Below, piece after piece: positions 9,057 through 64,000 of a stretch of DNA of 64,000 nt. This stretch comes from Raillietiella orientalis (Eukaryota). Both the position numbers and the translations under genes were made by a program. The stretch spans positions 3,224,001 to 3,288,000 of the forward strand of contig JAYWIR010000016.1 in assembly GCA_036172245.1 (NCBI GenBank), given 5' to 3'. Positions within the stretch are counted from its first letter, which is position 1. Each line of letters begins with the position of its first letter. The notes beneath the pieces are model-generated. The model saw only the letters and a program-made list of their open reading frames with translations, was not told the origin of the DNA and ran no database searches.

Positions 9057-9099
9057 GATCAATGAATTTAGTCATTCATGGGGCAAAAAGACTGTCTAA

Positions 9100-30704: not shown

Positions 30705-31404
30705 ATGGATTCATTACTTCAGATGGAAATTGCAGTGTTTGGTAAGAACAACATGTTTAATTTCATAGGTAATTATCTTCAAGTAGGTGACCCTGCTGTA
30801 GGTAAAAGTACTTTAAGTAAAGTTTTCACATCAGATTCTTCAGGATTTTCAAATTATTATAGGATGGTAAATATTAAGAACATCCAGCACATGAAATTAT
30901 TTCTGTTGATAGACCTGTGGAATAAAACTACATTCAAGATTTATTGAAGTGAACAATGAGATGGTAGAATTATTAATACTTGACTGTGGTGGGCACATAG
31001 TTTTTCGGGAAACTTATAAGCAGTGTGTAAGATTTTTTGAGTCTGGTATGTTTCATACGGTATTCAGTGGTGCAATGTATCTAGCTATTGCCTTGTCTAT
31101 GATGTTACCACCAAAGCATCATTGAATTCATTGTTGGAATTGAACGAGCATCTAAAAAATTCATTTCAAAGAAGTTTGGTGCCATCAGCAATCGTTGGGA
31201 CTAAAATAGATTTGGCTGATAGGAGAGTTATCAGTAAGGAGGAGGGTGAATCAGTAGCAAGACAACTTGGTATGAAACATTTTACTTGCTCATCAGTAAG
31301 TTTCTGGCGATTCCTGAAATTTTATCTTTAGTTTTTCACAGAAGGAAAAAATCAATATTATGGAGCCCTTTGTTTATCTTGTTGAGCAGGTCAGGAAATT
31401 ATGA
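30705..31404 (+). CDS. IFT27: Intraflagellar transport protein 27 (Rab-like 4 small GTPase, ~173 aa)
   Basis: 5 exons: 30705-30741, 30787-30866, 30913-31026, 31068-31295, 31342-31404. GDPAVGKS P-loop, VELLILDCGG, CLVYDVT and VGTKIDLADRRVI; no C-terminal prenylation cysteines; AATAAA near 31572. Confidence 0.85.
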
Positions 31405-37530: not shown

Positions 37531-38387
37531 GATGATGCTCCTGTGGTATTAATCTTAGAAAGCTCCTGTAAGAAAAAAGAAAAAAAATCTTCAATGTCAT
37601 GCTCATGTTCATGAAATCTCGAAATTCTTATATCAAATAGCTGTAAATGGATTAATTTTAAAGATTAAGTTGGTCAATGCATTTACGCAGGTCGAGAAAG
37701 TCACGCTTCAGTACCTGAAAACACACTTGAACTCTTATTGTATCAGGTACCATTTCATGCAATGCACATCTGTACCCTAGTCATCCATACCAAGAGAAAA
37801 AGGTAAAATTACCATAAACCCATTAATGTGATTAATCATGTGATTAGGTTAAAGATTTGATCTGGTGTACATGCTAATCTAATGACTTCCTTGATACAAA
37901 GCAAAAGTCACAAAACTGGCTCTCATCTGCTGTCCAAAGTAACCCATCACTGGTCTAAAAAAAAGTGATTTATGAAATCTTCGAATACTTCTAAATATAT
38001 CCATCATGATAAAACAGAAATAATGGAATGCCAAAAGCAGGTATGGGGCTAGAATTCTTGAATGAAATTATGCCAATTGCACACTTCATTTAGGGTTATT
38101 GTACAAGAATAAGTGTTATCATAGAAGAATTGCAAAGGTTATTCTTCTTCTAAATGAGTATACATACAAACCACAGAATATCATGCAATGTTTTTTATAG
38201 AGAAGTCTGAAATAACAAACGGAGTCATAAACTTTATTTGCAAATGAAATTGCTAAGGAGTAAGAAATCCATTTCTGAATACCAAATAAAGTACATGTGC
38301 ATTGAAAACTGGAACTGTGATAACTAATGATTTGCAGAACAGTTAATATCTTACCAGTTTTTAAACCTCATCTCACATAAATTCTTT

Positions 38388-41899: not shown

Positions 41900-43700
41900 T
41901 CATATCTAAATTAATTAAGTGAACGCTCTATGACATTTCAAGCCAATTTTTCGTCTTTTGCACTTTAGATTTCAAAATATTCTAGATGAGTGCATTCGAT
42001 TACTTTCTATTCTTCCAGGCTAATGAAATTGGTACTACAAGGGTGGGTTTTGTGCATCAACTGTTAGGAATCTGTCGAAAGAACTAAAAGAAAGCATTTT
42101 AATTTATGAACTTAATTCAATTTATGAACAATTTTTCAATTATCAATGAGCATCTCCATAATTTCAACTGAATCCAGTAACTAATCTTTGCTTTTTGATC
42201 TCTCTGGATTTTTATTCGGTTTCTTTTAATCTTATTTGAATGAATAAAAGTTTAACGATAGAACCCTGTTGCAGTCTCTCCACTTTATTTAGTGAGATTC
42301 AAGTTGTCAAAGACTTCGACAGTGATGATTAGATAGCTAAGAGTATTAGTTTTAAAATTTTCTCTAAGCTAAAATCATGCAAAAACAAAGAAAAAATCTT
42401 CAGTGATCCGTGCAGTTTCAGATCAAATGTGAAGTTTGGCAACCTCCTGATTCCGGTTTTCAGAGACTCCATTCTGCACCTCACTTCTGCTATATCTACC
42501 TCCTCATCCCCCTAATAGTCACAGAGCTAATTACATGAACAGCGTTAACGAAATTGGCAAATACCAACTGTCACGAATGTGTCAAGGATGGTTAGGAAAT
42601 GCAATTGAATTCATGAATACGGAATTTCCAAAAGAGTTCCGTCTTTATTTTGGGGAAAAAAGAGGCTCAGTAAAAGAGAAGCCTTCTTCCTGTAGGCATC
42701 TTGAGTCTGCTAATACAATTCCCTTTTTAATTCAATGTTTTTATGTGTTGTTTTAAAGCTCAAGATCAACGCTCCAGATCTCTGGGCACTTCTTCTCAAG
42801 TTCGAATGTCTTCAAATCATCAAACTAGTTATAAATGCTGTAACTATGTTAAGGCACAGTAATGTCCTTGATTACCTCGATTATTTCGTGAAAATTGTCC
42901 CTGGTTACTTGTAGCAAGGGAATAGGAAGCGGAACATCCTTTCGTCCAAAAATAAATGACTCGATTTTTTTCTTTTTTTTCCAATCACTGTTTCGGAAGA
43001 AAAAAAATTTACCGAAGAGATCTACAGCAGCACTCCTGTAAAAACAAGAGGAATGCAATAACACCTAAGAGCAACAGCTGCTGTGCTGGACCAAGCTTAA
43101 AGGAACGGATGTGCATCGGAAGGCGTAACAGCGGATGCATGTAATGGGCAAAGACCTGAAAAAAAACATGCATGAGATAACAGTGGAAATATAAAATAAC
43201 AGTTGAACAAGAGAGAGACAGAGAAAAAAAACACGTGTAATAAAGAAAGAGGTCAAACAAAAATCCTGAAAGAAGAGTTGTGTATTAACAGGGCAAGTGA
43301 AGCAACAGTGGACGTGCTATAATGAGCACACGTAGAACAGCACAGGCAGCAGGATCGCAGCAGCAGACGCGAAATCACAGCGTGCATTTCATCCTTCCCA
43401 TCCTCTCTCTTCCTGCACCGGTGTCAAAGGGATGTACCAGAGGTCTGGCAATACCCGTAGCTAGAGCAGGCTTCACCAGGCGGCTTGCAAAGCGGGTTTC
43501 CAATCACGTGTGGAAATTCTCCCCGTACTGTGTCCAGTGGAATCCAGCCACCTCCATCTCTTAAATTTGACTCCAGTCTGGTCTCTTTTACGCCTAAACG
43601 CTCTCGTTTGACAGGTACTCCTGGTGGTCGCCGGAAGTCTTTGATTATATGACCGGGCTCGAGGTGATAGCAACATGCAAGCACGCGTGTCACACCCCTC
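41900..43700. mobile_element. Degenerate gypsy-like RT and gag fragments upstream of vasa (start of block C)
   Basis: IGKYQLSRMCQG (+, 42535-42756); ITPKSNS..RMCIGRRN (+, ~42980-43144); ILSLPAP..AGFTRR (+, ~43380-43500); decayed zinc knuckle CYHLEPGHIIKD (-, ~43635-43680). Confidence 0.55.
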
Positions 43701-44593
43701 ACACTTGTGTCTCACCCTTCCACTCTTGCTTGCTTCCACGTGGGGCAGATTTTCGCTCTCCAGGTGATCCTCTCTCGTAGTGCCCAGGCGCGAGGAGGGG
43801 CGCGTACCCTTCCTCCCAACACTTCCAGGGGTTCTCTAGAGTTTAACCTCCCCTTCCTCGGCCCTTCTTCCTCTAGGGCACTAGGAAGGAAACGCTTGAT
43901 GCCCTTCCGAAGAGGCTTTCACCAAATCTCCCTCTTAAGGTGAACCCTCTTGCGATGGGAGGGGACAGGAGGGGAATGGAGGGAAGAAAACGGAGGTTTC
44001 GGCAGTAGAATTCTCCCTCGAAGGCTTCCTCCCATCCTGTTCCTTTCTTATTCCGGGAGCGCCCGGGTCCGTGCAAGGGCCGTTCGTTCCAGGAACGCGC
44101 CGAGCATCCTCTCCCCCTCCCCCTTCCTCTTTCTTGGGGCGATCCCGTCCGCGTTCGAGGTTCCCTTCCAGGAGAACGTGCACCATACCGAGCGGCTTTG
44201 TACCGTCGGCTCAATCAGGAGAGATAACGAATCTCAAAAGTGAAGAGGGTAGGGGGTAAGGTGGGGAAGCAAAGGGGGGAAGCTTTCAGTACCCTCCTCC
44301 CCCTATGTTTCTGTTCCGGGGCTGAAGATGGCGCTCTCTACGCACAGATCCCCCAATCTGCCCTGACCGTCAGCCTGTGCGGAAGGGCGCACCCTTCCAG
44401 GACTGCTTCCCTCCCGTCCCTCAGGGAAGCAGGAAGGACTTGCCCTCCAAGGAGAGGCTCAGGGAGCAGCGGCCAGCATCTCGGAGAGGCCGGTGCGCCC
44501 TGGGGGCTGCTGCTTCTCACGGGATGAGTGCAACTGGAAAAGTGGAAGGAGTCGCGTCTCGGGTTTCCCTTGAGCGTGTTTCTCGCGAAAAGA

Positions 44594-44611
44594 GGGGGAG
44601 GGGAGGGAGGG
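44594..44611 (+). other. Canonical G-quadruplex motif (one of several in the GC block)
   Basis: GGGGGAGGGGAGGGAGGG; others at 46060-46078 (+) and 57501-57523 (-). Confidence 0.7.
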
Positions 44612-47600
44612 AGGCACGACTCTCGAGCCGTCGAGACCAAGAAGAGTCCCTATGGGAACGTCATTGCCGCCGCCCCCCCTCCGACCTGGCCGCGCACCCA
44701 GAAGAGCCCTGGAGTGGGCCAGGGAGAGAGTGAGGGTGAGGGTTTCCGAGGAGGCGCGGCTCTGCGCCGCAGGAGCACCCGACCATCCGGGACAAGCAAA
44801 GCCGACGGAAGAGGGCGCTCGTGGCAGGCAGAGACAGCGACTGCTGAGCCCTGCACGAGAGCAGGGAGGAAGGGAGGAGGAGGGAACGGCGCCAGGCATG
44901 GGCGTTGTTTTGAATAGAGGGGACGGACGGGAACCTCCCTTGATCCAGAGGCCGGCTGTTGCCGTGGGAAACTCAGGGCAGTCCTGACCTCCGTCTCTCC
45001 CCGGTCACCGCGGTCTCCGCGAGTTAGTTCCTTCCTTCTCGGAGGAGGTCGGGAGGGTCACTCCAAGCCCCCTCCCCTCCCCTCTACCATATTCCCCCCT
45101 TCCAGTCCACATCCTCACCTTATTTTTCCAGAGGGAGGAAGAGGTTGGTGAGCTCGTAGCCAGGGTGGAGCAGAAGGCTCCCTTCCCCCCCACTCGAGCA
45201 GGGAAGAGAGAAAGAGGAGAGAGCGGCTAGGGAGGGAAGAGAAAGACCATTCATTTGCATAATAATATCTCCTTTTTTGAGGTCATGCAATTTACGATTC
45301 CTATGAACATCTATATTAGTAACTATTACGCCTTTTGCCAGATTTGCCCAAATATGCAAAGGATGCAGCAAATTTTGCACTTTGGTCGTCATTAATTTTA
45401 AAATTAGAGGGAGGTACCTTTATATAAAAAATATAAATCACAAGATGTTATCTCAGTAAACCAAAAAGTGTTGGTCCAGCTAACTAAAGAAGAACGAGGC
45501 AATTTAAGATTCAAAAAGCGTACAAGTTCCCTCGTTTGTTCCTTTATCATGTCCTGCTGTTCTTTTAAAGAGGCACTCACCTTTTCTCCAACAGCAACCC
45601 AACCGATAGGAAGACCACAGAGCTGCCAAGCGTGGGTTAGAGGGAAGGAAGGGGGGTAAATGAACCACCCCCTACGAGGTGAGGAGAGCGCTCTGGACTC
45701 GTGCGGAGAAGACGACGCCGACTACGCACTGTCGGTTAGAAGCGTTTGGGGGAGACGGGAAGCGAGGCGGGAGGAAGTGAGGTGAGGAGCAAAAAACAGA
45801 TCCCTCCTTTGCCGAAGGGGGGAAACATGGGGAAGAGTGCGCGGCGCCGCACTGCAGCGTCCGACCTCGTCATCCTGTGAAGGGGGTCGGTCCGTGAGAG
45901 GAGGGGGGACGTGATCACCTCTGATCTCGCGCAAGATTCCCCCTGCCTTTCCCTAGGGAAGGGGAGAACTTGCGGGCGATCAGCGCGAAAAGGAGCGGCT
46001 CATCTGTGCCCTCGTGGAAGCGGACGGATGCGCGTCGGCTCAGTGGCGCGAGGCAGTAAGGGAGGGAGGGAGGAAGGGAGGGAAAAGAATCTTGGAGATC
46101 GACTGAGCCTCTCCTCCGGGAGGTCGCCGTCTCCCTCTTCTCCGCTCGTTCCTGAGTCCCGCTGACGTTCGGCGTCCTGGAAGACCGCCCGCCGCCCACG
46201 GAATCGGCGTGCGAGCGTGGGGAGGGGCGAAGAGAAGAGAGAGTCCTCTGGATGGCTGGAGAGCCACCCAGGATGTGTCTGGATGCAAGGCGTTTCCTGG
46301 CTCCCCTGTGGGGCCAGAAAGGGAAAGTCGCTCCGTGAGTCCGGGAGTGGATGGAAGGGCACGGCGCACCTGCGCCCCGGCTAGGGAGGAACCTCGAGTC
46401 CCCCTGCTTTCTTCATCCTCACCAGAGACCCCACCGAAGGAAGGGTGGTCGAGGGGGTGGGAAGAGAGCGCCCCGGGTGGGAGGAGGCCGTCTGAGGAGG
46501 AGCCCTGCTCGGCCTTCGGGGGGGAGGAGATGCGCGGCGGGGAAGGGGAAGGATAAGCAAGGCCCTAGTGGCCAGGCCCCAGCGGCCAGCGGGTGTTTTC
46601 GGGAGCGGACCGGCGGCGGAGCTCTCCCAGAGCCTCCGAGAAGTCTCTTCCCAGAAGGGAGGGGAGAGAGGGCGGTAACGCAAAACTGGGGGAGGTCCGC
46701 GCAGCCGCAGCCTCTTTTCCCTGGAAGATGAGGATTGAGAGCGGATCCAAGTGGCGCTAGTTGTCGTGATAACCGGGTACCCGGAGATTGGGAGGAAGCG
46801 GGGCAGAAGAGAGTTCCCGGGATCTATGGCGAAGGGGGGGGAGAAAGGGTGCATCGGCCGTGCGGGGGAGAAGAGGAGCTGAGGTGCTCGGGTGGGCTCG
46901 CGAAAGGGTGTTAGTCGCGGAACGGGGAGGGCTCGCTTACTCACTTCTCCTCGCTACGTTTGCCTGCTCCGAGAACCTGCCCTGCCGGGATGGTAGGGAA
47001 GGGAGAGGAGGGAAGAAAGGCCGTCGGTTTCTGTTCTGGCAGGGGCCTGGGTTTTCAGTGCTCCCGGGGGAGGGGGGGGGGGAAGGCTAACGCTCTGCCT
47101 AAGGGACTCTTGGCCGAGGCTTCGAGGTTGCGACGTCACCCGCCGTAGCGGAGGAGGCCGGAAGGCGACTCACAGGGGGGAAGCGGAGGAGTAAACGAGG
47201 AGACTTCCTCCCCAAAGAAGGGATGGAAGTGATGGCTCACCCAGGGGCTTGCTCGAAGAGGGCAGCGGTCGAGTTTCTCCCTACTCCTCTCCCACCCTAC
47301 GTTCCTCTGACTGGGCTCTGAGCGTGGGCGACCGAACTTCCCAGGGAACTCCTCCATCACGGCTTCCGCGGGAGAGAACACCTGGAAGTGGATACGGGGA
47401 GGAGGCCGCAAGGAGGCGCCCCCTTCCCTCCCTTTGCACTGCGTCTCTTCGGACAACGCGCATGTTGGGGAAAGGCAGTTGCTGGACCATTCCTCTCCCT
47501 CCAACCCCCCCGAGAGCCGAGCGGTGCAGGTTCGGCCTCCATGGCAACGGCTGCTGATACGGGGAGCTCCCTCCCTTCCCTCCCTTTTGGGAGGAGGAGG

Positions 47601-50600
47601 GTAACCCTTCACCCCTCTCTTGCAAGACGCGCGTGGCGCAGGACGGCGGCGGCAGCCACCCTCGGCGGGAGGCGACCGAAGAGGGGAGGGGAAGGAGGGA
47701 AAGAGGTGGGGGAGACAATCGCTGCCGCCGCCCCCGCGGCGCCCCCTCATTGTCTGCCTGCCCTGACGAGCCCCCGCGGCCTCGCGTTCCTTGCCCCCGC
47801 GCCCGGAGGCGAACACAATGGCAGAGTCGGTCCCCATACGCATGGGCCATTCAACCGAGCCATCCCATCTTTGCTCCATTTGACCCCATCAGGCAGGGGT
47901 CGACCCCCTGGGGCCACCTTCGAGAAGGAAGGACGAGACGGAGGTGGAGGGGGGAGGAAGGGGTGATCGGAGGCGGCAGGACGACACGGAGAAGAAATAG
48001 GGGAGCGCCTGGGATGCGCTTCCGGATGTGTGTGTGTTTTTTTCTTCTTCTTCCAGGGAACCACCACTGCGGAGGAGGGGGAAGGGAGAGAAAGGGGGAG
48101 CGGAAGGGAGATGGAAGGCTCCTTCTCCCTGGGAGGAACGTCCCCATACCTCTCGAGTGTCTCCCCTGAAGGGACGCTGTGGGAGACCCTGGGAAGGGTC
48201 ATCTCCGGCAGGTTCTCCCTGCTTCTTCCCAAACCTTGAGGGATAGAGAGCGACCCCGCGAGTGTGCTCATCGGAGCGCTCCTCCACGGCGACAGTTCGC
48301 CGATTCGCGGTTGCCGTGGGAAACGGGGGAGGGGGACCTCGAGCTCCCGCGTGCCCGGCTGCTTCCCTGCTTGGCCGACTCGAGTGGGCGAGAAGGCTGC
48401 TCCGTCCCTGGGGATGGCGGGAAATTGCCGCCCGCTTCCCGTGAGGGGGAGGGCAGGGGAGGAGTTTCTTTGGTGCCTTCCGCAGCGCCAGTGTCTGCTC
48501 GAGGGCGCGCCTCCTCCTCCATTCCTTCCCCCCCCCCCTTCCTGCTCTCATTCCAGGGATGCGTCAGAGCCTTGGCAGAGGACTCTGAGGCGAAGGTGCT
48601 CCTCTCTCTCTCCCCCCCTCCGAGGCGGAGAGGAGGAAGCGGCTCGGACCACCGCCACGGAGCGAGGGGTGGGGTGGGAGGGAACAGGAAGAAGGGGGAG
48701 ATGAGAACCCGGGGGATGTGTGCCGCTTCCAAGGGGTCATCCTGTCGCGATCTGCATCGCGCCGGGTTCCGCACCCCTTTTTCGTCGGAAGGGCCGGGGA
48801 AAGAAGGAACGGCGAGACGGGGGCTAAGAGCGCGAGCGGACGCTGCTTCGAGGGCCGGGGTCGTTGATCCAGGAGAAACCTGGGGGAGTGGAACAGAAGG
48901 GTGGAGGAGGCCGAGGGAGGAGGAGGAGGGGGGAGGGGGAAGAGGTGGCACACGTCGGGCGGAAGGGGTTCGTGGCGGCGGTGGCGAGCGACCCCGCCCC
49001 GGTGCAGCCCTCGGGCACCTCGCGCCCCTCTTTCGGTGGGGCGAGGGAAGGGGCGGATCATCCCAGTTTCCGCTCGCGTCGGGGCGGCGCCGCGGTCCGG
49101 AACGTCCGGACCGCAGAGCCGCCCCAAGCTCTTCCCGTCAACGCCCGCCGGGAAGGTCGGGGAAGGAATCCGAGAGAAGAGGGTGGTGGAGTGGGCATGG
49201 TAGTGTCGCGACGCCTCCCTCGCTGCGGCGCCCGGCCGAGACTGCTGGGATCCGGGTGTGACCGCAGTGTGCCATGGGGACGCTCGCATGGAGCTGCTGG
49301 CAAGCCAAGAGTGGCCCAGCGGGGGGGAGAGGGGGGAAGCCCCTTGTTTCCCGGGGAGCCGCTGAAGCAGATTGGGAGTAGCCGGTCCTTTACCTTCACT
49401 TCTATGCCGGCGAGAGCGACGGGCCCAGCGAACTCCTCCTTCCTCCACCACCCCATATCACCCTCGTGGCGTTGGATGTTCCCACAACGCTGCTCCTCGA
49501 GAGAGCCGCAGAGAATAGGCAGGAGGAGAGCTTCTCCCTTCTCCACCCCACAACTGCTCCCTGCAGGCGTAGGGGGTCGGACCGAAACCCTCCGCAGAGG
49601 AGGACGGGATCAGAAGGACCGCAGACCCGAAACAGGAACCCCGGCGAGGCGAGGCAAAACAGGGGAGTGGGAAAGGAGGAACTTGCGAGTCACGTGACCC
49701 GGAGTCGCTGAGGTCAACCACCGCGCCGGCAGGAGGGAACGCGGCCCCGTGCTTCCTCCTGGAAGTGGATAGGGCGCGAAAATTATTTCCCCGGCGCCTC
49801 AGCGTAGGAGGAAGCAGCACGGGGCTCTGAAGGGACGAGGAGAATGGGGAGATGAGGGAGGACGCGGAACCGCTCCCGTCCTCGCCCCGAGAGGAGGGAG
49901 GTGCGCTCCAGATCCTCCGCCACCGCTCTCCTGGGTTGGTCTTCCTCAAATCCTCACCCAGCCGGAGGGTCGAGCTCCTCCTCCCTCTTCTTGCCCCGAG
50001 GGGCTGTATCGGGAGCCACCCTGCGGAGTCGCACGTGAGGAGCTTCCGGCGAGCGAAAGGGGGGGGGGGAAGAAGAAGACCCGGAGGGAGAGAGATCGAC
50101 GACACTCCGGACGGAATTCGCTGCGGGTGTCGTCCGGATACAGACCAGGAGGAGGGCGTTTCCATGGCGTCCCGGCGGCTGCGGGTGAGTGGACCTGGTG
50201 GGCTCGAATCACCGTGGCTGCTGCTCCCTTCCTCTCCGAGAAGACTCTCGCGGAGCTTCGTGGTCGTCTCCGCTGCCTCTCGCCGTTCCCAGGAGGGCGC
50301 GGGCGAGGGTCTGCGACCTCCCCTCTCCGGCAGAGCGAGGGAGTCCGACAGGGGGAGGTGGAGGGGGGGAGAAGAGAAGTGGAAGGTCGCGCGGGACGAG
50401 GACCGGCTCCCGCGTGCGCACGCCGTAAGGAGGCGACCCGAACGCACGCACCAGTGGACCCGTGAGGCTGCGGGAGGAGCTCCCAGGGCTCATCTGAATT
50501 TTCATCATGTCAAACAGCCGCGGGGCAGAAATACCAGGTCAGGGGAATGATGCGAGTGCCGCGTCGGCTGGCGCCGGAGAGAAAGTCGGGCCGCTCGCTC

Positions 50601-51851
50601 CTCCGGCGCCCCTGCCTTTGCGGAGGGAGCGGATTGGGTCAGCAGAAAATCCAGCGGCGAGTCGGCGAACGATCGCCGGAGGGGGTGGCAGCAGAGGCGG
50701 AAGGGAGAGGCAGCGTCTCCGGCGAGGGGGGTCGAGTCTGGAATCCCTCCGTCCGGTTGTAGGGGAAGGAAACTCCCCTCGTGCACGGCCTGCGGAGTGA
50801 AGGGTGGGGGGAAGACTGACGCGTGCGTGCGCGCGCTACCGGTCCAGACCACGCGGACGAAGCCCTGCCCATGAGCGTGAGTGCGGCGAGCCCCTACGGG
50901 CGGTATCCCTGACCCTTGCCCCGCCCGCGAGGTGGCTCCAAACACGGGGTCCACCTCCGCACTCTCCCTCCTCCTCACGGGGATGAAAAAGGAAAGGGTA
51001 AGCGGCAATGCCGCTACTCCGTCCTCTCCCCCAGCATCTCTAAAGGGAACGGAGAGGTGGCTCACGGACGAGCCACCCGGCGCCGTCTGCGAAGAGGCTA
51101 AACGCGTACCTCCTACCTCAGAGGTGTGTGGAACGGGAGGGCTAACATAAGAAGGAAGGAGGAAGGAAGAGGGATCAACTCCGGGGAGACTGGGGCTGTG
51201 GGGCCTCCGCACCCCGGCATGTCCTCAAATTCCACTCCCGGACGCGGGCCTTCTTTTCCTGGACCGCACCTCTTCCCCCCCATAAGATTTTTTTCCCGCC
51301 TGATCATCTACCACGCGTGGGTGGTCGGTGATCTCCGATACGCTCCCGTTGCCTCCAGGGCAGTCGGATGTCCCGGCGACCCAGCCCCCTTCGCCATTGC
51401 CACCCGCGCGCTCCGAGGGAGACTTCGATGAGGTCTCCCCATGAGTTCGAGGTGAGCAAAGGGTTCCTTTCCGTCCCCCTGCGTGATCTTTGACCTCGTG
51501 CCGACGAACCAGTCAGCCCACTGGCGGGCATCAGGCGGAGGGTGCGTCGAGAACAGGGCGGGACGAGGTGCGATGGGGAGAGGGAGGGAAGGGGGGGGGA
51601 TAAAGGAGCGAGACGCTGGCGAGCGCGCATCAGCAGCGTCATTTCCCGCTGTCGGAAAGCGAACGTTGAAATTCCGTCTCTGGGATCAGTTGCTCCCAGG
51701 ATCCCGGTCCAGAAACGGAATCTGGACTGGCTCTCTCTGCACCTACGCCCTTCTCCCCGATCCCCTACCAGTGCTGTGCGCACAGTTTGGTCGCCTTCTG
51801 GACTCAGAGGACTCCCGGAGGTCAGCTTCCGCCTTTCCTCGTGGCCGATGT

Positions 51852-52177
51852 CCCCACTATTCCGACCCCCGCAGAAGAGAAGTCGACCCTCCTCCGACAC
51901 CTCCTCCAGGGAACCCGGGAACAACGAGAAAAAAAATATATATATATGGACGTCCGAGGAGTCGCTGCGCGGGCGAGTTGAGGCGCGGCGAAGAGTGGTC
52001 CACAGTCATGGGAGGATGTCGAAGCATCGGCAACGCCCGAGACTCCGACCCGCTCTTCCCCGGAGGCTCGAGGTCGCGCTGCACCACTTCTCCGAGAGGA
52101 GGGGAGCAAGCCGCGCGTCCCGGTTCTGACCAGGCGGGCTCTCAGAAAGACCTGCCGTCTCAGCTCCGGCTTGTCGT
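51852..52177 (+). repeat. Left arm of a ~326-bp near-perfect inverted repeat
   Basis: Reverse complement of 52990-53316. The only differences I saw are in the internal A/(TA)n tract and one substitution near the outer end. Confidence 0.95.
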
Positions 52178-52989
52178 CTGGTCCGTGGTGCCAGGAACAC
52201 CCGGGGCAGCATCGCACGACCACAGCTTCCGAGAGCGCCAGAGTGGGCCCGAGCCATCGCCATCCTCTTCGAATGCACTACGGTCGGTATGAGGGCCCAA
52301 AGATCACGGGAGGAGCAAAGATGATGATGATGACGATGTAGAGGAGAAGGAAGAAGAGGAGGAGGAAGAGGAACAGGGAGAGGTCCCCAAGTGGACTCGC
52401 CAAGCACCTGTCCACCCCCTCCTCCTTCCCCGCACTCATGCCGGCGAAGCACGGTGGGGCACCTCGGTTCGCGCGAACGGGGCAGAGGGGAGAGGGTGGT
52501 AGCAAGCAACCTGGAGGTGTGGCATCGATCAGCTACTGCTGCCGGAGGGTCAACGTATGACGGGTCAGAAAGAGGGCGCCGAGGGGGAAACGAGGCTTTC
52601 ACCAGGGCTTCCGAGGTCCCCTCGTCCGCCCTCCTCGTCGTCGCTCCACCGAAAAAAGCCCCCGGAGGAGCGGCGAAAGGAAGGCGCCAGCTTTCCCGCG
52701 TCGGGTGCGGGAAAGTGGGGGTCTCCCGGCCGGCCGTTTCCTACCAGGAAGACGGCAGGCAGAGGGTCGTGGCCGCAGCGAGCAGCGCGGGCACCTCCGA
52801 AAGACGGCGGTAGGAGGCGGTGGGAAGGGGGGGGGAGAGGAGGTAGACTTCTTGCCCAGAGCGTCCGGTCGAGACTCAAGCAGTTCTTCCGAACCCGAGG
52901 GTCGAGGGCGGGAGAGGTGCATCCGCGCACCCTCACCGAAAAAATGGGTGAAGGTCAACGTACGACGGGCCGGAAAGGGTGCAGGACAA

Positions 52990-53316
52990 ACGACAAGCCG
53001 GAGCTGAGACGGCAGGTCTTTCTGAGAGCCCGCCTGGTCAGAACCGGGACGCGCGGCTTGCTCCCCTCCTCTCGGAGAAGTGGTGCAGCGCGACCTCGAG
53101 CCTCCGGGGAAGAGCGGGTCGGAGTCTCGGGCGTTGCCGATGCTTCGACATCCTCCCATGACTGTGGACCACTCTTCGCCGCGCCTCAACTCGCCCGCGC
53201 AGCGACTCCTCGGACGTCCATATATATATATATTTTTTTCTCGTTGTTCCCGGGTTCCCTGGAGGAGGTGTCGGAGGAGGGTCGACTTCTCTTCTGCGGG
53301 GGTCGGAATGGTGGGG
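52990..53316 (-). repeat. Right arm of the ~326-bp inverted repeat (812-bp spacer)
   Basis: Identical peptides appear on opposite strands in the ORF track (e.g. MVQRDLEPPGKSGSESRALPMLRHPP at 51857-52087 - and 53080-53532 +). Confidence 0.95.
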
Positions 53317-56300
53317 CCGAGAAGAGAGGGAGAGAGGAGGAGGTGGAACCCGCGAAGGGGTCTCCGAGGTGGTCGATTACTGCAGGGGAGAACCGGAGGT
53401 CGCCTCGTGTGCGGAAGCAGCGCGCTGTATGGAGCCTCAGTTGCGTCGCCACTACCGTTTCGGCCACAAAGGCCCTCCCTCCCACGCACCGGGAGCCGCG
53501 AAAAGTGGGGAGCACGAAAACCTTCGGAATAAAGTTGGGAGCGAAGGAGTGTTCCAGAATAAGGAGGAGGGAGGGAGGAAGGGAAAAGAGGAAGATTTTT
53601 CGGGATGAGGGTGCATCCGCTAGAGAAAAAGGAGAACATAGCTTCATTCATGAAGGAAAGCAAAAGACGCGCGCCTGGCCCCCCTGCTCCGCCCCTTTGC
53701 CCACAGATTTTCCTCTTCCGGTTCCCTTCCTTTCCTGTGCTCCATCCGCCTTGAAACTTCGGGGCAGCATCCTCCCCCTCTCCCCCATTTACGTCTCCCC
53801 TCCTCCTGATTGCGTCCAAGCACTGCCTCTGCAACTCGTTATGCCCCGCACTACAGCAGGCGGCAGATGCTCGGGTAACGGCTGCTTGGTTTTCGGGTTC
53901 TGCTGAGCTTCTGCTGCCTCCTTTCTACTCCGTTCTTCAGCAAAGGGGAGAAGGGAGCGCGCGATGACCTGCTGCCAGCTCCGAGGTCAGACCTCTCCAG
54001 ATTCAAGTGCCGTCTTGCCGGGACTGGGAGGAGGGGAGGGGAGGCCATTCGCCGGGTCGCCTCACTCTACCTGGCGTGCACCCGCTATCCGCAGGATTCG
54101 AAGATCCAGATCGCCAATGCGCTCGGGAGGGAGGGTGATGGGAGCGTAGAGGACGCTGAGGTCTAGGAGGGACGGCAGCACACCCTGAGGTCGTTCTCCT
54201 GGAGAGCCGGGCGCTAGGGCCCCAGCCTTTCCCCACCGAAGAGGGGAGGTCCTCAAATCGGGGGCATCTCCCGATCGCTTCGCTTCCTTTGTCCCGCTGA
54301 AGAGCGTGCCGAGGTTGCCTGAGTCCGGGGTCAGGGTAGTAGGGGAGGTGGGCCGCGAGCCGAGAAGGTCCGAGGTCACTCCAGGGTGTCCGTCTTCCCG
54401 CTCTCTCTCTCCTCAGTCGTCGCTCCCCCTTCTCCGGCGGGAGCAAGCCAGGAGACTTACGGGAAGAGCAGCTTCCGGAGAGGGGAAGATGGTGGTGAGG
54501 ACTTCCCGCGATGGCAGACTTTGGAGGAAGAGGAGGGGGGAGAGGGAAGCGAATTCGTAGGCGACCACGGAGACGCCTCCGGGAGGGTTGGAGCCGGGGA
54601 GGGCGGGGGGTCCCGAGAGGACAAGGAGGTCAAACGGTAGCGGCGGCGATGAGGGATGAGGTCACGTGGACGGAAGTGACGTAAGGAGAGGGTGGAGTAG
54701 GGGAAGAAGAGCGGCGGCGACGTCGCCGCGTCGAAGCACAGGACCGAGGTCGAGTCTCTCCTTTCCCCCGGGGAAGGCCACCGCGCCTACCTCCGGAAGG
54801 ATCACCGCCAGGTGGCAGCACCCACTTCCGCACGCGCCTCTCCCCCTTCCTCTGCGCGTTCCGAACCAAGCCGAGCGAGAAGGCGGGCGGGTTCGGGCGT
54901 GCTTTGGGAGGGGCGGGGGGCCGCAGCCGGCGTTCCTTGGTGGGGCCCCCAGAAAGAGGCACGGAGGGCGCGCGTACGGCACGACGGCGGCGAGCGCGCG
55001 CGTGCCCGTCCGGATTCGAAACGTGCGCGTGCGCACGCACGAACGCACTCACGTCTCGTCGAGCGCGCGTGCTATCCCCTTGGATGCATTCCGCAGCCCT
55101 CAGCTCCTGCTACCAGCGGGGGACCCCAAGCGTGCTCGCGAGCTTCCCGCTTGCGTAGGCGAATGGTCCCCCCCCTCCCTTTCGTTCTCCCCCTCCCGAC
55201 TTCCTGCGCAGTCCGCCTGACCGCACTGCCTTTTCTGCGCGTGCACGCTCACCCAATCCCAAGGAAGGTGCGAGCCGCCCCTCCTCGCCCACCGAATGGC
55301 CCTCGGGACGGTCCGGAAGCATCCGGCCGTCGGCGCTCCCCCTTAGAGGAGACTGCCTTCTCCGAACGACGGCGCAATGTCGGACGGGGAAGTCCAGACT
55401 CGTTTTTGGGAGAGAGAGGGCGGGAGAGCGCGGCAGGGAGAGGACCGCCTTACGGAAAGTCCTGCAGGACCCGCGGCATAGGAAGGAGTGCGCGACGTCG
55501 GAGGCACCCGGATCGCCGGAGGGGTGGCGGGGGACGCGTGGCTTCGGTCGCTCTCGGAACCTCCCTGCGAGGGGGAGAGGAGGAGAAGGAAGTGTGGGGA
55601 GGGGGGGAGCAATGGCGCATCATCTCACCAGCCGTCCGAGGGCGCAAGCGAGGACCCCTGCTGCGCGCGCGCACGTGTCTCTCTCGCTTCCGCGACTCCT
55701 GCGGCCCGACCCGGCGAGGATGTTCCTGGGCAGGGAGAGGAAAGTGGGCAGCCGAGCGAGGAGGAGGAAGGGAGGGGGACCTGGGGTTCTGGCGTGTCCC
55801 TGGCGTCACGGGTCGAAGGAGCCGTTCCCGAAGGTCGCTCTCGCCCGTGTGGCAGAGTCGGTCCCTGTTGCCCGGGGACAGAGCCGACTTCGAAAGTGAG
55901 TCCCAAAAGATAAGGGAGGACGCGCGCGCTATTCCCCGGGAACCAGGAAGGTAGCTGGGAGGAGCGCACAAGGGAGCGCCTGTAAGAAGAGCCCGGGATG
56001 TGTTCTCCTCACGAGAGGTCGCTTCCGGAGACGACGTGGTCAGCATGTCGACCGCAGAGAGGCAGCTGCGGCAACGGACGGCTTAAAGGGAGCGAAGCAA
56101 GAAGTCTGGGAGGGAACGATGGGATGGCGAGTGGGATTCAAGAGAAGGGAGAGTAGGGGCGTGGCTGGATTTTCCGCCCGGAAGTGGAAAGAGAATCGCA
56201 AGCAGCTGGGAACAGGGGACGCATAAGGAGGAAGAAAAGGGAGCAGGAGTAGGAAGCAGTGCTCTCCCTCTTTCCTTCTCTCGAGGTCAGTCTCGAGGGA

Positions 56301-59300
56301 GAGAAGGAGAGTCGAAGACTTTGGTACCGCTTCTGGGCCTCCCTCACTCTGGAAAGGGCACGGAAGGTGCTCGCCCCCGTTCCCTTCCTTTCCTCTCCTT
56401 TTCTTCCCTCTCACGAGGTGAAGGGGAGCTGCGTCCTTCAGTCTCCCGGCCGTGGGACGAGGAGAAACCGAGAGAGAAGTCGGCGCAGATCCCTCCCGGT
56501 CCTTCCCCCTCCCCTTCCTCCTGGGAGTAATCGGAGGGTTCGGTCCGCTGGGGAGGACGCCTGGATTCATTTCCGGGTTTGCTCGAGCGTCCTGGACAAT
56601 GGTTTCCCTTCCTCCGACCCCCTCTCCCTGAGGAAGAAGAGAGACCCTCGGGGCGTAACCGAAGGCAGGGAGGGTCTCCCTGAGCAAAGGTCACTCGAGA
56701 AGGCGGAGGGGAGATACCTTGCGGAAGGGGCACCCGCAGCGGAGCAGCACCGTCCCCTCCCTCAGTTTCTCCCACGTGCTCGAGAGGAGGAGGCGACCGG
56801 AGAGACGGAGGCGAGCATCGCTTCCGCTCCCGGAAGCACGCCGTCGATGATCGCCTGAGGAATGGTCCAGAGAGCAGCAGCAGCACTTTCCATCTCTCCT
56901 CCTCTCCGGGGAGGGAGGGGGGATGTAGGGAGAGAGAGACGACCGCTGCTTCTCTCAAGGCTGGCGTGCACTCTGCGAACGCAGTCGCCTCCGTCGCAGT
57001 TGCCGAGAGAATTCTTCTGAAGGAGGAGGAGAAAGAGGAGGGGCGCCGCCGTTCTCTCTCTCTCTCGCACGAGCGCCGCCGCCGTCCCCGCTTCATCACC
57101 ATCCCCTTTCTTTTTCTCACACGCGGGAAACCCGGGAGCGAGCAAGCGCGCGCCGCCGCCGCAACTCCTTACCGCCCCCTCTCCCTCCGCACCCGTCCCC
57201 GAGGCCCGGGAAAAGGAAGGAGTAGAAAAAGGAGGCATGGTCGAGAGAACTGCAGGGACTCCTCCCGTCCCCTCCTCGCTCATGCGGAAGGGAGGGGGCA
57301 TGGTCTCCCGTATCTTTGCCTCTAGAAGCATCTGCGGGCCGAGTGGCCGATGCCGCGTGCGGTTACCCCCCTCTCCCTTTCCCCACCTCATCCTTTCGTG
57401 ACGTCACTCCCAGGTCTAGACGGGAGGTCGCCTCGCATGTTCGCTCTCTCGCGCGCGGGCGAGAGCTCCGGTGCAAGTGAAAGTGAATCTCCGGATTCGG
57501 CCCTCCCGCCCGCCCGCCCGCCCGCTCGCTTGCTCGCTCGCTCGCGCGCGCGGCGCGCCGCGGGAGGAGGAAAGCTGATCGCTGCCGCAGGTGGACCGCC
57601 ATTCGTCTTGGCGCCCACCACGAGCACCGCACGCAGCGCGCGGGGCCAGCCGCTGAGGATCAGCAAGGCGACGGAGACGCCGACGACTGCCAGGACGAAG
57701 GAGACGCCGACGACGCAGAAGACGACGGGATGGTCCTCACGGCCGGCAGCCTCCGCTGAGACGCCTCTTTAAGGAGATCGACGGAGCGCCGCGGGCAGCA
57801 ATCGGTCGGTGCGCAACGCCGTCGCCGCCAGCTTACCCCTGCGTTCGCGCCAGGAGACGTCCCAAACGCAGGTAAGCGGCTCGCTCCTGGGATGCTGTGG
57901 GCTCGCGCGTCCCGCCGGCGTCGGGTGCGATAGGGGAGGAGGAGGAGGAAGACGGAAGGGGGCGCGGGCCAAAGGTGCCCGCCTCTGCGGTCCGGGCGCG
58001 AGGGAGGAAGGGAAGAAGCATCAGGGAAGGCGGGCTATTGGCAGTGCAGTGTCTTTCCGGTAGCCCGACGAGTCATACCCTGTTGCATCTAGGCCATCCC
58101 TGTTTTCGCGCACCTCTCCCCCTCCCTTCCTTCGCTCCTTAGGACCGTGCCCTCTCGAGGCGCGCGGGCGGGTCGGCGCCGGCTCGGGAAGGTCAAGTGT
58201 GCGGAAAAATCGGCCAGCCCACGGGAACGAGGACGTACGCGCCGAGCGTAGGTCGCTGCTACTATGGCGCCGACCAATCCCCTCTTGCCTCCGCTCCCTG
58301 CCCCGCTTGCCCTCGCCCTCTCTATAGTCGTCGTCTGCGAGCGCGGGAGGGAGGGAGGAGGCTGGAGACGGCTGCGGGAGAGGTGACGGCGGCACCTGCC
58401 GACCGGCTCCCGAGGCTGGCCGGGCCCGCGCCACGTGCGACATGGCCGCTGCTGTCGTGGTCTTACTCCTCGGCAGGCTGCAAGCGACGTGACCTTGAGG
58501 GCGAGAAGGAAGAGGAGAAACATCCGCAGGTGCCACGGCTGCTGCAGGTGGGGAAGTGGAAGTAGAGGCGCGCGTGTTGGGGCGGGCGGGCTGCTCGTCT
58601 CATCTCGCTCGGGGGTTTTCCTCTCTCCCTCGCCCTGCCCTTGCCGCTCCGTGCGTCGTCGCCCGTGCAGGGGAGTGGTTCCGTCTCCAGGAAGCGGATT
58701 CCGCTGTTGCTCAGCAGGTCTCTCCCGAGCGACCGTGGGAGACCGCGAGGGGGTGCGACCGCTTTTCCCTCCCTCCCCCCCCCCTCTCTATCGCGAGCGC
58801 CCCCCTCCTCCTCGTCCCTCCCCCCTCTCTCTCCTCCGGTGGGCGGAAGAAACAAGAAGCAGGTGAAATGGAGTCTTCATCGGAGAAGATCGCCTGACCT
58901 CTTTACGGAAGCCGACTCCTCCATCTCGGTTGACCCTCGCGCGGTTCCCCCTCTGGGCTGCACTCGGAACGGTGCCGTCGCCGCCGCTTCCATCCGGCTC
59001 CGCGCACGCACGGGCGAGTGTGCAGGTCCGTCGGCATCGGCGTCCCCCCGGGGTGGGAGGGTGGCAAAAGGGGGAGAAACCGGCCGGGGACTCGACGAGG
59101 CGGAAGACTTCCCACCCTACACCCGGTGGAGGGGACTCGTGGGAGGAGCCGGGAGCATGGGTAGGGGCATCGAGACAGGGGACCTCCTCCGCCCACGAAT
59201 GAGTGCGCCCAGCCAAGTAAAAGCGGCAGTGACGGCGGCCGTCCGCATTCCGACGGCGACGGACAACCGCAGTTGCTTTCGGAGGCGCTGCGGCGCCGGC

Positions 59301-61109
59301 GGCGACGCAGGACGCGTGCGTTCTCTCTTTCGTGTCGAGCTGCGGAGTCACCCGGCTGCGGCGGTCGCGGCTGCCGTGGACGAGGGGGGGTGGGTGCTTC
59401 TGGAGAAGAGGGGAGGAGGCGCCTTCCCTTCCCTGACTGGGAACCTCGCTGAAGTGAAACTCTTCCCCTTTCCCCTCCGTCCTCTCCTCCCTCCTTTCCG
59501 AGCCCTGGATGCCCGAGGGTCCCGCGAGGTCCAATGAAGGCGGCACTGGGGGAATGCCGGTCTCTCTCGGACAGGAAGCGGCCATGCCCGCGAGCCTCCC
59601 GGCTGTTGCTCACCTGCGCGGGTCGCTCAGAGACCTTTGCGCACCCCACCCTCTCCCTCGCGGCTCGGACCGGGAGGGAAAGTGACCCGGCGCACCTCCA
59701 CCGGCGAGGTCGCACCGCGAGGCCACCAGACGCCTTCGTGACTTTTACGGATTGTGAGCCCCCCCTTCACCATCCGCACCGCAAGTGGGCCGGCTCCCTT
59801 CCTCGGCACGTGCGCGCGCCTTTCTGGCAGCGGCTCTTGAATAGGGCCAGGAGAGAACGACCTGGCGGGGTCCGCGCGCGAGGTGGGCGAAGCCGGAGGC
59901 GGGGCTCTCGGTGGACTGCCCTGCTCGCCGCTCCCGGAAGAGAGGCGAAGGGAGGCTCGGGGCTACAACTGGAAAAAACGAGGAACAGCGAGGAAGAGGA
60001 GCTCGTTCAAGGAGTAGCGCCGGGGGCCCAGGGAGGGCAGCGGGAACAAGGGATGGAGAATGGAGGAGAAGGTTCCGGGATGCCTCGTTGCCCTCCCCTT
60101 CGACGCCAGGTCCGGAAAAACACGACATGAATTCCCCGGGCCCTCCGTCCACCCTGCCCGCGGCGGCGCCGGGAGCAGATGGCTGGGGAGTCCAGTCCGA
60201 ATCCAACCCTCTCTGCGCTCTCTCCGCCCCTCGTAGACTGGCGCCATCGCCGCTCCCCTGGAGGGCAGCACCGTCGCTATCACGCTCTCGGGAAATTTTC
60301 CTGGAGTCGGCCGGCGGACCACTCCGCGTCCCATCCTCGCACCGCGGACCTGCGTCGGACCCCCCGGAAGCTGCGCTGTTGCCCTCCCAAGCAATCCAGC
60401 AGCCCCTGGTGGACGCACTAGGCCCCTGACCAGCGTCCACTGCTCGAACGAGGAGGAGGAGGAGGAGGGAACGTGGTCTCCTGGGATCGGCAACGGAGAC
60501 GGCGGCAGGGCCAGAGAGAGGAGGCGAAGGACCGTTGCCGGGAAACGGAAGACTACGGCCGAGCTTCTGCCCATCCCCCGCCAGCGTCCACATCTCTCCA
60601 GGGGCTCCTTCCGCGTGCTGCCTTCCCTCCTGCTGCACCCCGAATCCGAGGGCCCGAAGGTGGGGGGGGGGGGGCAGAACGGGAGGACGACCAAGCGAAG
60701 CGGCTGTGAGTCCCTTTCCCACACACCTTCCGCTTTCCTGGGTCCGGAGCGAACGGGAGGAAGGGGGAAGATGAAACCCCTTGGCTCTTCGTCTCCCGGG
60801 CAGCAGCCGAGGTGCCTTCCCTCACAGAAAAGGAAGGATGGAAGGGAGGGGGAGGAGGAGCAAGGAACCGTTCGTCGAGCGGCCGCCGAAGGTCGTTGCA
60901 GCGACCTTCGGCGACCGCATCCCTCCTTTTTTGTTCGGACCACCTTGTTTGTCTGTCGCGTGGGCGTGAAGAAGAGCGCGCGCGCGCCCCTCTCCGTCCC
61001 TCCTAGGCCCCCTCCCTCCCCCCTCGCCCTTGAACTTATTCCCGCTACGGGGCCTTCCCGCTTTTCCTTTCTAACGGACGAAAGTTGCGCGCTGCCCCCT
61101 CCCGCGCCT

Positions 61110-61140
61110 AGGCGGCGGCGGCGGCGGCAGCGGCGGCGGG
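61110..61140 (+). repeat. (GGC)n trinucleotide tract
   Basis: ggcggcggcggcggcggcagcggcggcggg. Confidence 0.85.
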
Positions 61141-64000
61141 AGACATGACGACCCCCGGATGCCCGCGAGGAGCGGGAGAGGACGGTTTCCTCCCTCTCCC
61201 ACCTCTGCTCCCTTCCCCCAAAAGCTGACAAACAAAGGGCGCGCGAGAGAGCGTGGCCCAGCGGCGCGCTTGACCTTGGTCTTCCTCAGCCCTTAGTGAG
61301 GCCACGGGAGTGCCGGGATTCCCGCCTCCTCCTCTCCCGCAACCTCGTTTTCCCCTCCTCCTCCTTTTTTCCCCCTTGTTTTGTTTTTCTTCCTTTCCTG
61401 AAAAAAAGGTCAAGGATGTCCGCCCTTGAAGGCCTCGAGGGCGAATGGGGGTGGGTGAACGTCAACGTGTCAGGCGTGAGGTTGGGAGGAGGAGGAGGGG
61501 AAGCGTTGCTGGCACGCTCTCAAGAGGAAGGGGGAGGGAACGAATTCCCGGAAAAGCCGGAAGAGAGTCATGCCAGTCCTTCTCTGTTCCTCTCTCTCTC
61601 CCTTCCTCCCCCGTTACCCCAGTTCTCATCCCCACCGCCGCCGTGCGAGTCGCAAGCCGTGGGTTCCACGTGCCCGAGCGGAGGATGCTGAGGGGGTGAG
61701 AAGAGGTAGGGAGGGGAGGGAGGAGGAAGGCTCTTTTCGTGTGGGGCGAGGGGGTGTCATCAGGCGGCGGAGAAAGTGAAAGTAACAGCCGAGCTCTCCG
61801 ACCCGGCCTCTTCGGCGCGTGAGGGGGAAGGGCGGTAAAGTCACCAGCCTGTATGCCTTCTTGCGCACCGCCCCCAAGAGACGCCTCCTGCATCCCGCTC
61901 CCGTGCATAGAGGAGATAAAGGAAGAAAGGGAATGAGTGAGGAAGGCACCGCGTTCTGTGAGGCTACCGAGTGGACCCTTTGTGCAACCTCCTCCTTCCC
62001 CTTTCCCTATGCCCCATTCCGGGAGCAGGAGCAAAGAGAGGAGGAGTGACCCCCTCTAGAGGGCGGAAAAACTCCCGGTTGCCTCCCCTGAGGACCTTCG
62101 CCTCATTCCTTGTGCTCGGGCACAAACGGTACTAGCGGGGAGGGCCAAGGAGTGGGGTGGGAAACGGGCCGTCTCCTCCCAGCCCCTTTCTTCTCCCCTA
62201 TTCACGGTTCCTCCTTCCTGGAAGCTCTCCCGGGCTCTCCCTTGGCGTGCGGCTTGCATGCCCACCCGCCAAAGCCACGAAGAGGGGGAAGGGCAAACAG
62301 AAAGGGAGCGGAAGAGAGTGAATCCCTTCCTCCCGATAGAGCCATCTGGCGTCCCAAGCGTCCGCTTCCTTCATCTCAGACTCCGTGGACTCCCATCGGG
62401 ACATCCGGGAGTCTGGAATGAACGAGCTCCCTCTCTGCAGCGCTTCGCTGCAGGTGGCTCCGAGAGGGAGCTCACGAGGGCAGCCGGGCATCGGCTTCCC
62501 CAGCAACCCTTTGCAGGGCGTGCATCCTGGACGGATGGGGGTCTCTGGGTCAGGGGTGGCGTGGGTTCGCGCAAAGAGCACTGTGTGGTTTCGCGAAGTG
62601 TAGGGAAACGGTGGGGTGTTTTTTTTTCGGGATAGGACGTATGCTTCACCCTTATCCTTTCGGGGCCGCAGCGCCGTCCTTGGAGGAAGAGGGAGGAGGA
62701 GGGACGCCCCTCTAGGGTAAAGGCAGTTCTCCCTCCTCTTCCGATCTTTGGCAAAGGTGCCTGCCTCGCCTACCGTCCTTCCCCTTTTCTTCCCGTTCAT
62801 CCCCCGTGTCCCTCACGATTTTGGAGGAGGAGGAAGAGGTCGTTTCCCCTCTCTTCCCCACAGACATCGAGATGCTTCCGGGTTCCTTCGAGAAGAGCTT
62901 CAGGAGAAACGTCTGGGGAGACAGCTCTCTCCCACAGTTGCGCTCGCCTGCTGAAGGAGAAAGAGGGGGGAGACACAGTCGACCCTCCTCTGGGGCCGTC
63001 CGGGGTTGCATGCGCGGCTTCTCCTATGAAGAGTCTACTGTTGCATGCCGACATGCAGCTCATGTGCATACGCCCACGTCCCGGAGGGTACGCCGGATGC
63101 TCCCCCTCCCCCGTTGACTGCACGACCGATGTGACGTCAGAAGGGAGGGGGTGGGTAGGGAATCGAAGGCTCGTCTGCAAGGGGGGTCCCCTCCTCTACG
63201 GATCCATGTGACGGCGCCAAAAAAAAATTCTTTCGGGACTCCGCCCTCTGATACTGATCACGCCAAACCTTCCCCACCCCCTCCTCGACCTTTCCTCCCT
63301 TCGGAGGGTTGAGACAGGATGGGGCCTCCGTCCGGAATCATATCGAGCGTGGGCGCCCAGAGTCCCTGTTTCCCCTGCTCGCTCCGCTGCGCCACTTTCC
63401 CTGCATCCCCGTCCCAGTGACGCTGCTAGTCAGTGTTTGGCGTCACTCGAGCTTTCAGAGAAAGGTCAGGTCAGCGCATCTTCCAGGATGTGCAAGGGTT
63501 AGGGGATTCCGGGACGTCGGCAGCCCCCCCCCCCCCGGCGGTCTCAGTCCGGGCATGCTCTTCGCGGGATCGGGGCTGTCCTCTGCACGTCCTTCGCTGC
63601 CCCTCCGGATGTCCCTGTCGCCTTTCCGTACCCGGGATACCCTCGGGTTCCTGGGGTGGTCCGAAGTTCTCGACTTCCCGGGGGAGCTAATATTTCTTTC
63701 CCGAAGGGTCTTCTTGGACGAGGCTTGCCCATTCCGTGGGAATAGGCTGTCAGGAGAAGGCCCCGGGTTCGTCCATCCCGGAAGGAGGGAAGAAGCGGGA
63801 CCGCCCGCGGACTAGGGGGCCTTCGGGAGCTCGGCTCTGGCCGTTGTTTAGGGGAGAACGGGGGCTGCGCTTCCTGTTTGGCGCCGTCCCCTTCCCCCTG
63901 GTCTCTGGGCTTTAGACGGTGGCAGGCGAAGCTCCCAGGTCGGATGGCCGCCCCTGTCCAGGGCGCTCCCACTTGCTCGCCGCACTGCGGGCGCGCGCGC

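Follow-up and report, generated by a model that had tools for sequence, protein, structure and literature searches.

The window analysed here is a stretch of 64,000 nucleotides of the Raillietiella orientalis genome (contig C16, JAYWIR010000016.1, positions 3,224,001 to 3,288,000), and all coordinates given below refer to this window unless stated otherwise. It was examined together with 40 kb of upstream and 150 kb of downstream DNA (254 kb in all). A step in base composition near 43.5 kb divides the window: the content of guanine plus cytosine (GC) is 35.5% in bases 1 to 43,299 versus 64.0% in bases 43,300 to 64,000. The AT-rich part belongs to a 65-kb cluster of CpG-depleted housekeeping genes that is flanked by GC-rich blocks; its identified members are TRAPPC11, an acyl-CoA dehydrogenase, TRAPPC9, a small GTPase, and a vasa-like helicase. 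The following features were located in the window (GC3 denotes the share of G plus C in the third positions of codons, CpG o/e the observed-to-expected ratio of CpG, and LINE a long interspersed nuclear element):

2,828 to 3,409, minus strand: exon of TRAPPC11 (foie gras domain), GC3 0.36
7,770 to 9,071, minus strand: acyl-CoA dehydrogenase exons, identified in the AT-rich cluster
11,919 to 12,230, plus strand: LINE fossil in the AT-rich half (tblastn E 2e-11), a positive control for the searches; no other remnant of a transposon was detected in the window
13,480 to 22,562, minus strand: TRAPPC9 exons, AT-rich and CpG-depleted, GC3 0.28 to 0.29
30,700 to 31,400, plus strand: gene for a small GTPase, presumably Rab-like by its P-loop motifs
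32,000 to 37,500: intergenic gap in the AT-rich cluster, 47% GC, CpG o/e 0.79, in which neither gypsy nor any other family was found
38,351 to 40,200, minus strand: vasa-like DEAD-box helicase gene, the last gene identified in the AT-rich cluster, GC3 0.32, CpG o/e 0.42
42,900 to 44,200: ramp from AT-rich to GC-rich DNA, midpoint ca. 43,530, by logistic fit and 250-bp profile
43,300 to 64,000: part of the GC-rich block lying within the window, 64% GC, CpG o/e 0.85, unique and apparently non-coding, upstream of an ELOVL gene
45,250 to 45,600: AT-rich islet in the GC-rich block, single-copy, 35% GC, with one octamer motif
51,852 to 53,316: inverted duplication with arms at 51,852 to 52,180 and 52,987 to 53,316, 329 bp each, around an 806-bp spacer
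57,560 to 57,871, plus strand: candidate non-coding first exon predicted from the sequence, with a CG-rich start region and a consensus donor at 57,872

An initial annotation of this DNA had placed the main rise in GC between 43 and 44 kb, which proved accurate. A logistic curve fitted over 38 to 50 kb, with the islet at 45,250 to 45,600 omitted, climbs from 35% to 65% GC around a midpoint at 43,534, covering its 10-90% range in about 1.36 kb, and such a ramp is better than a single step by about 11 log-likelihood units. The GC values reported earlier for five single lines of sequence (22, 48, 73, 78, and 62%) were all recounted exactly; the high ones are extremes, the 2-kb windows within 44 to 64 kb spanning 57 to 68%. 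Relative to the vasa-like gene the ramp is upstream, at a distance of about 3 kb from the 5' end. CpG o/e amounts to 0.27 to 0.42 over the genes on the AT-rich side versus 0.85 in the GC-rich block, and TpG/CpA over the same genes is raised to 1.3 to 1.4. The GA/CT tracts and G runs noted previously are present as well: in the GC-rich block every purine-purine and pyrimidine-pyrimidine step is enriched and every mixed step is depleted, and G-quadruplex-like motifs number 28 in the 20.7-kb GC-rich part versus none in the first 43.3 kb.

The GC-rich block is about 120 kb long and extends to about C16:3,388,000, with 62.5% GC over 44 to 160 kb. Beyond it AT-rich and GC-rich stretches alternate again, and the preceding GC-rich block stops about 22 kb before the start of the window. 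Two gaps inside the AT-rich cluster are of intermediate composition (45% and 47% GC). The genes identified in the block encode an ELOVL elongase, an EF-hand protein, LIX1, and an oxysterol-binding protein (OSBP); those for ELOVL, LIX1, and OSBP are split by introns. The coding part of ELOVL comprises six exons with normal splice sites, beginning about 0.9 kb past the end of the window (L001:891-2736), so that the DNA between 43.3 and 64 kb is its upstream, probably first-intron, DNA; a simple donor scan found no first coding exon. GC3 is 0.28 to 0.36 in four exons of the AT-rich cluster versus 0.74 to 0.95 in 11 exons from the four genes of the GC-rich block, and GC in the block is elevated at non-coding and silent coding sites alike. 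Selection might keep domains of regulated genes GC-rich through effects on chromatin or expression, with codon selection adding to GC3, and a GC3 of about 0.9, well above the 0.64 of the flanking non-coding DNA, would fit this explanation. The introns, however, are equally GC-rich, and near-uniform richness over 120 kb of unique non-coding DNA is hard to obtain by site-by-site selection; we consider this explanation very improbable.

The composition of the block recurs elsewhere in the genome. Forty spaced 3-kb samples, taken from contig C1 (0.5 to 8.1 of 12.2 Mb) and from C16, have a mean of 50.8% GC with a standard deviation of 9.5 points versus 0.9 expected from sampling; 15 of them lie at or above 55% GC, seven at or above 60%, and six at or below 40%. 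The genome therefore cannot be called AT-rich, as had been done initially. Within the 254-kb context, blocks with ramped edges alternate, an edge occurring every 10 to 120 kb, and the histogram of GC in 2-kb windows is bimodal. The proposal of a strong local domain of GC-biased gene conversion (gBGC) or mutation bias, at a recombination hotspot or subtelomere, survives in part: a GC-favouring regime is still the best explanation, whereas an isolated hotspot or subtelomeric island does not agree with 15 of 40 samples at or above 55% GC, which point to a genome-wide mosaic, or with the 0.69 Mb that separate the block from the end of its contig of 3.98 Mb (contig ends not being chromosome ends). 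The GC-rich block is thus ordinary for R. orientalis, and the AT-rich housekeeping clusters are the exception. In the literature searched, which included few subscription papers, we found no report of mosaic GC in the nuclear genomes of pentastomids or of crustaceans related to them. An assembly chimera or contamination, for example by vertebrate host DNA, is most unlikely. The edge is a ramp, and similar edges return along this contig at intervals of 10 to 120 kb; AT-rich and GC-rich DNA share the same LINE families; and the LIX1 exon is no nearer to vertebrate LIX1L (66 to 70% identity) than to arthropod sequences (68 to 72%), which argues against vertebrate DNA, the vertebrate LIX1L sequences being 86 to 100% identical to one another.

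The GC-rich part had also been read as fossils of gypsy pol genes that continue across the boundary and were shifted to high GC in place. No Pfam family scored over its cut-off on either side. In the GC-rich stretch none of the 61 frames of at least 150 residues did so, nor did any of 138 frames of 75 to 149 residues between 42 and 64 kb, the 121 frames of 45 to 74 residues there not having been scanned as a set; weak matches below the cut-off in five of the 138 frames involved no transposon family. On the supposed source side (31.5 to 38.3 kb), no frame of at least 45 residues passed the Pfam cut-off. Protease, reverse transcriptase, RNase H, and integrase were without a match in the GC-rich stretch in the Pfam scan of frames of at least 75 residues, a scan that included no tblastn search with a gypsy protein query. 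Throughout the 210-Mb genome, the rve integrase-core model gave no candidate while it gave matches in six of 14 control genomes; genome searches with Integrase_H2C2 and RT_RNaseH were blank too, and carry little weight since the controls were equally silent. RVT_1 gave 3,358 candidates genome-wide, and the best of the 150 scored is of the LINE type. Long terminal repeat (LTR) retrotransposons may accordingly be rare or absent in this genome.

Searches at the DNA level agree. Comparing 44 to 64 kb with the genome, very common words being skipped, returned five matches of 37 to 74 bases; between 43.3 and 64 kb there are no long direct repeats or LTR pairs, nor any match in 716 kb of other DNA from the genome. 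When natural open frames of R. orientalis LINEs (113 frames, 52 loci) served as tblastn queries, no LINE fossil was found in 43.3 to 64 kb, and fossils were found at 11,919 to 12,230 and outside the window. An Rfam scan of 42 to 64 kb identified no structured-RNA family. The Gly/Ala/Arg/Pro-rich translations that had been taken for GC-shifted pol are matched by shuffled DNA: these four residues make up 45.4% of the six-frame translation of the block versus 44.3% in shuffles, and the initial annotation was therefore reading base composition. Very old gypsy remnants could fall below detection, and there is no positive evidence for them; with the Pfam, DNA, rve, and LINE-tblastn searches blank and the control fossil at 11.9 to 12.2 kb detected, a domain built of GC-shifted gypsy fossils has next to no credence. 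No likeness to Ty3/gypsy fossils was found, and the fossils detectable here are LINEs. To judge by these searches, the GC-rich stretch is ordinary unique non-coding DNA. The suggested use of transposon fossils as an internal record of the shift also fails on the point that the annotation itself had named as decisive, as the real fossils of the wider block are LINEs whose families are natively 54 to 62% GC wherever they are located.

Some smaller features deserve mention. The vasa-like helicase (38,351 to 39,577, minus strand) is 52 to 56% identical to its best arthropod relatives, which points to a long-branched, poorly sampled lineage. The AT-rich cluster also contains a short CpG-rich patch of 55% GC (27,000 to 27,260); it resembles an unmethylated promoter and is upstream of the TRAPPC9 exons, which are on the minus strand. 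On the ramp lies a 63-residue frame rich in SP/TP motifs (43,461 to 43,652, plus strand); as a last exon at the edge it is unsupported, its three matches all being to long proteins through several summed stretches, with no match in the Atlas. The islet at 45,250 to 45,600 is possibly a constrained regulatory element. An octamer motif is present in two of the 14 AT-rich islets of the block, this one and another near the window-equivalent position 78.2 kb, both single-copy and candidate regulatory sequences; the 14 islets show no enrichment of TAAT. The arms of the inverted duplication differ by two substitutions and one indel, and it could be either a recent template-switch event or an artefact of assembly or amplification. 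The candidate exon at 57,560 to 57,871 perhaps belongs to the ELOVL gene.

The direction of mutation was estimated from LINE copies. Of 50 distinct copies, 36 belong to two families whose size allowed changes to be polarised; the other 14 were omitted. Private changes in these 36 young copies amount to 222 from A/T to G/C at 49,734 A/T sites and 665 from G/C to A/T at 61,313 G/C sites, giving a mutational equilibrium of 0.29 GC (0.26 to 0.33 by bootstrap over copies) for copies that are mostly outside the GC-rich blocks. An equilibrium of 29% matches the AT-rich cluster; with the GC-rich block at 0.64 versus 0.29, the blocks consequently need an added bias in favour of GC, with B of about 1.5 for 64% GC and about 3.1 for 90%. 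Young LINE copies stand in same-direction arrays with a spacing of about 5.6 kb (on C71, C114, C53, C33, and C189, and at contig starts), and many are on small contigs or near contig ends.

Decay of CpG is by itself too small to produce the contrast. If all excess TpG/CpA is turned back into CpG, the AT-rich cluster rises only from 31.6% to 35.2% GC, and CpG decay thus explains about 4 of the 33 GC points that separate the two compartments. CpG transitions are raised 2.5-fold in four LINE copies with flanks at or below 41% GC (20/1,590 versus 26/5,201; p 0.003), and the ratio is 0.84 to 1.13 for copies in the other flank classes. PF00145 has matches at C11:3.436 Mb, in a gene that is presumably DNMT1-like from its motifs. 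The pattern suggests that the housekeeping cluster is CpG-methylated.

We favour the reading, at a probability of roughly 55%, that we see here the margin of a GC-rich compartment, one among many of 50 to 120 kb in an arthropod genome with two regimes, the GC-rich blocks being lifted by a fixation bias, most likely gBGC acting outside methylated genes. Mutation, as observed in LINE copies, pulls everywhere towards about 29% GC. Clusters of housekeeping and germline genes, with their observed loss of CpG and probable methylation, would rest near that equilibrium, and unmethylated DNA would be held at 60 to 70% GC, with silent codon sites near 90%, by a bias towards fixation of G and C. By analogy with the honeybee, recombination may be kept out of methylated gene bodies, and the step at 43.5 kb would mark the end of a methylated cluster.

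Nuclear insertions of mitochondrial DNA (NUMTs) served as a second class of neutral insert. There are 54 COX1 matches in the genome, and NUMTs are numerous; 37 loci were used, two of which look like duplicates, and 27 of the 37 cover conserved COX1 sites. At these sites, NUMTs in flanks of at least 52% GC lean towards GC (63:29 in six loci versus 276:229 in 21 loci; pooled p 0.016). Two mitochondrial-type contigs (C282 and C285, ca. 9 kb) were also noticed, with a strong excess of C over G, a COX1 73% identical to its best match, and, ahead of COX2, a gap of ca. 550 bases. Among at least 120 COX1 matches, the three highest are pentastomids (72 to 73% identity) and the others, nearly all insects, reach 68 to 71%; COX1 is thus closest to pentastomids by a narrow margin, and in a tree limited to these two groups the query has a long branch.

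A number of results weigh against a conversion-driven origin of the blocks. Significance of the NUMT trend is lost when loci are the unit (p 0.085 by permutation; p 0.11 by Spearman correlation, n=16) and when all sites are used (p 0.35, n=36), and no NUMT has a flank above 58% GC. Young LINE copies show no effect of position (0.32, 0.30, 0.32, and 0.28 by flank class), the three copies in flanks above 51% GC being equally AT-biased (0.32). The GC shift of old LINE fossils, whose families have 56 to 62% GC in any case, is not significantly related to flank GC (rho 0.27, p 0.34, n=14), with p of 0.25 to 0.91 for three other references. In the 40 samples CpG o/e is only weakly correlated with GC (rho 0.28, p 0.08). 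The block has 62 stop-free frames of at least 150 codons versus 33 to 43 in dinucleotide simulations, a sign of remaining unrecognised structure; we attribute the surplus, without proof, to the purine/pyrimidine tracts, and the clustering of purines and pyrimidines is itself not a product of transition-biased conversion. A variant of the LINE test at second codon positions (0.16, 0.23, and 0.18 by flank class; GC3 versus flank GC, rho 0.37, p 0.056, n=27) mixes families and is uninformative. Taken together, the inserts suggest an active GC-favouring regime but do not demonstrate one.

The same inserts bear on two explanations in which conversion plays no present part. A regional bias of mutation or repair tied to chromatin state (e.g., replication timing or germline transcription) instead of recombination would accommodate the narrow edges of 1.4 kb and the restriction of the tract pattern to the GC-rich block, and in an ant the substitution rate is reported to follow active chromatin more than methylation itself (PMC4751555). 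Private LINE changes are nevertheless AT-biased in every flank class, that above 51% GC with its three copies included, and we judge such a bias unlikely. Alternatively, the GC-rich blocks might be relics of a past regime now decaying towards about 29% GC. The loss of GC from young LINE copies everywhere speaks for this, as do old LINE fossils in 62 to 64% flanks, whose GC is at or slightly below that of intact relatives (-0.054 to +0.006 against reference L105). On the other side, the GC loss of these fossils, which are about 30% diverged, is smaller in three of the four richest flanks than in the remaining ones, though not significantly so, and NUMTs tend to gain GC in richer flanks; decay from a past regime appears distinctly unlikely.

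A further variant, possible though doubtful, retains the role of methylation and replaces crossover-linked conversion. A two-state composition, with an amplitude of about 30 GC points and edges of about 1 kb, would be set per gene cluster by methylation, and the rest would be driven to 60 to 70% GC by another bias, for instance a chromatin-dependent repair that also builds the purine/pyrimidine tracts. If true, the epigenome would here have written a system of isochores, inverted relative to vertebrates, in whose genomes gene-dense DNA is the GC-rich part.

Mosaic methylation of gene bodies is known from invertebrates. R. orientalis resembles them in that CpG depletion and TpG/CpA excess are sharply bounded and limited to conserved gene bodies, and in that transposons outside CpG-depleted regions show no CpG hypermutability; it differs in that CpG decay gives so little of its GC contrast. 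The closest parallel to gBGC outside methylated genes is the honeybee (Apis mellifera), where the crossover rate of low-CpG, methylated housekeeping genes is reported as 29% of that in high-CpG genes and gBGC is strong (PMC4406589). Both genomes have two gene classes by CpG, the low-CpG class being housekeeping and AT-rich, and in both mutation is AT-biased so that higher GC needs a fixation bias. The two differ in amplitude: the honeybee genome is given with a mean of 34% GC, exons that exceed introns and intergenic DNA in GC, and an excess of CpG (o/e about 1.67; PMC4406589), whereas R. orientalis has non-coding DNA of up to 64% GC, a CpG o/e of 0.85, and a sampled mean of 51%. Recombination and allele frequencies were measured in the honeybee (PMC4406589), while R. 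orientalis is known here from sequence alone. The runaway GC regions of gerbils are likewise extreme and reach silent coding sites, but are described as megabase-scale clusters on an ordinary background (PMC7403616); those of R. orientalis are 10-120-kb blocks alternating throughout the sampled contigs, with AT-rich DNA as the minority.

For practical work, binning or contamination filtering by GC would divide the R. orientalis genome wrongly, and the long Gly/Ala/Arg/Pro-rich frames of its GC-rich blocks invite false gene and transposon calls. What is new here is the estimate of the mutational equilibrium, which at about 29% GC agrees with the AT-rich clusters. With its large contrast and its narrow and many edges, this genome is well suited to testing whether DNA methylation, via recombination, shapes base composition.

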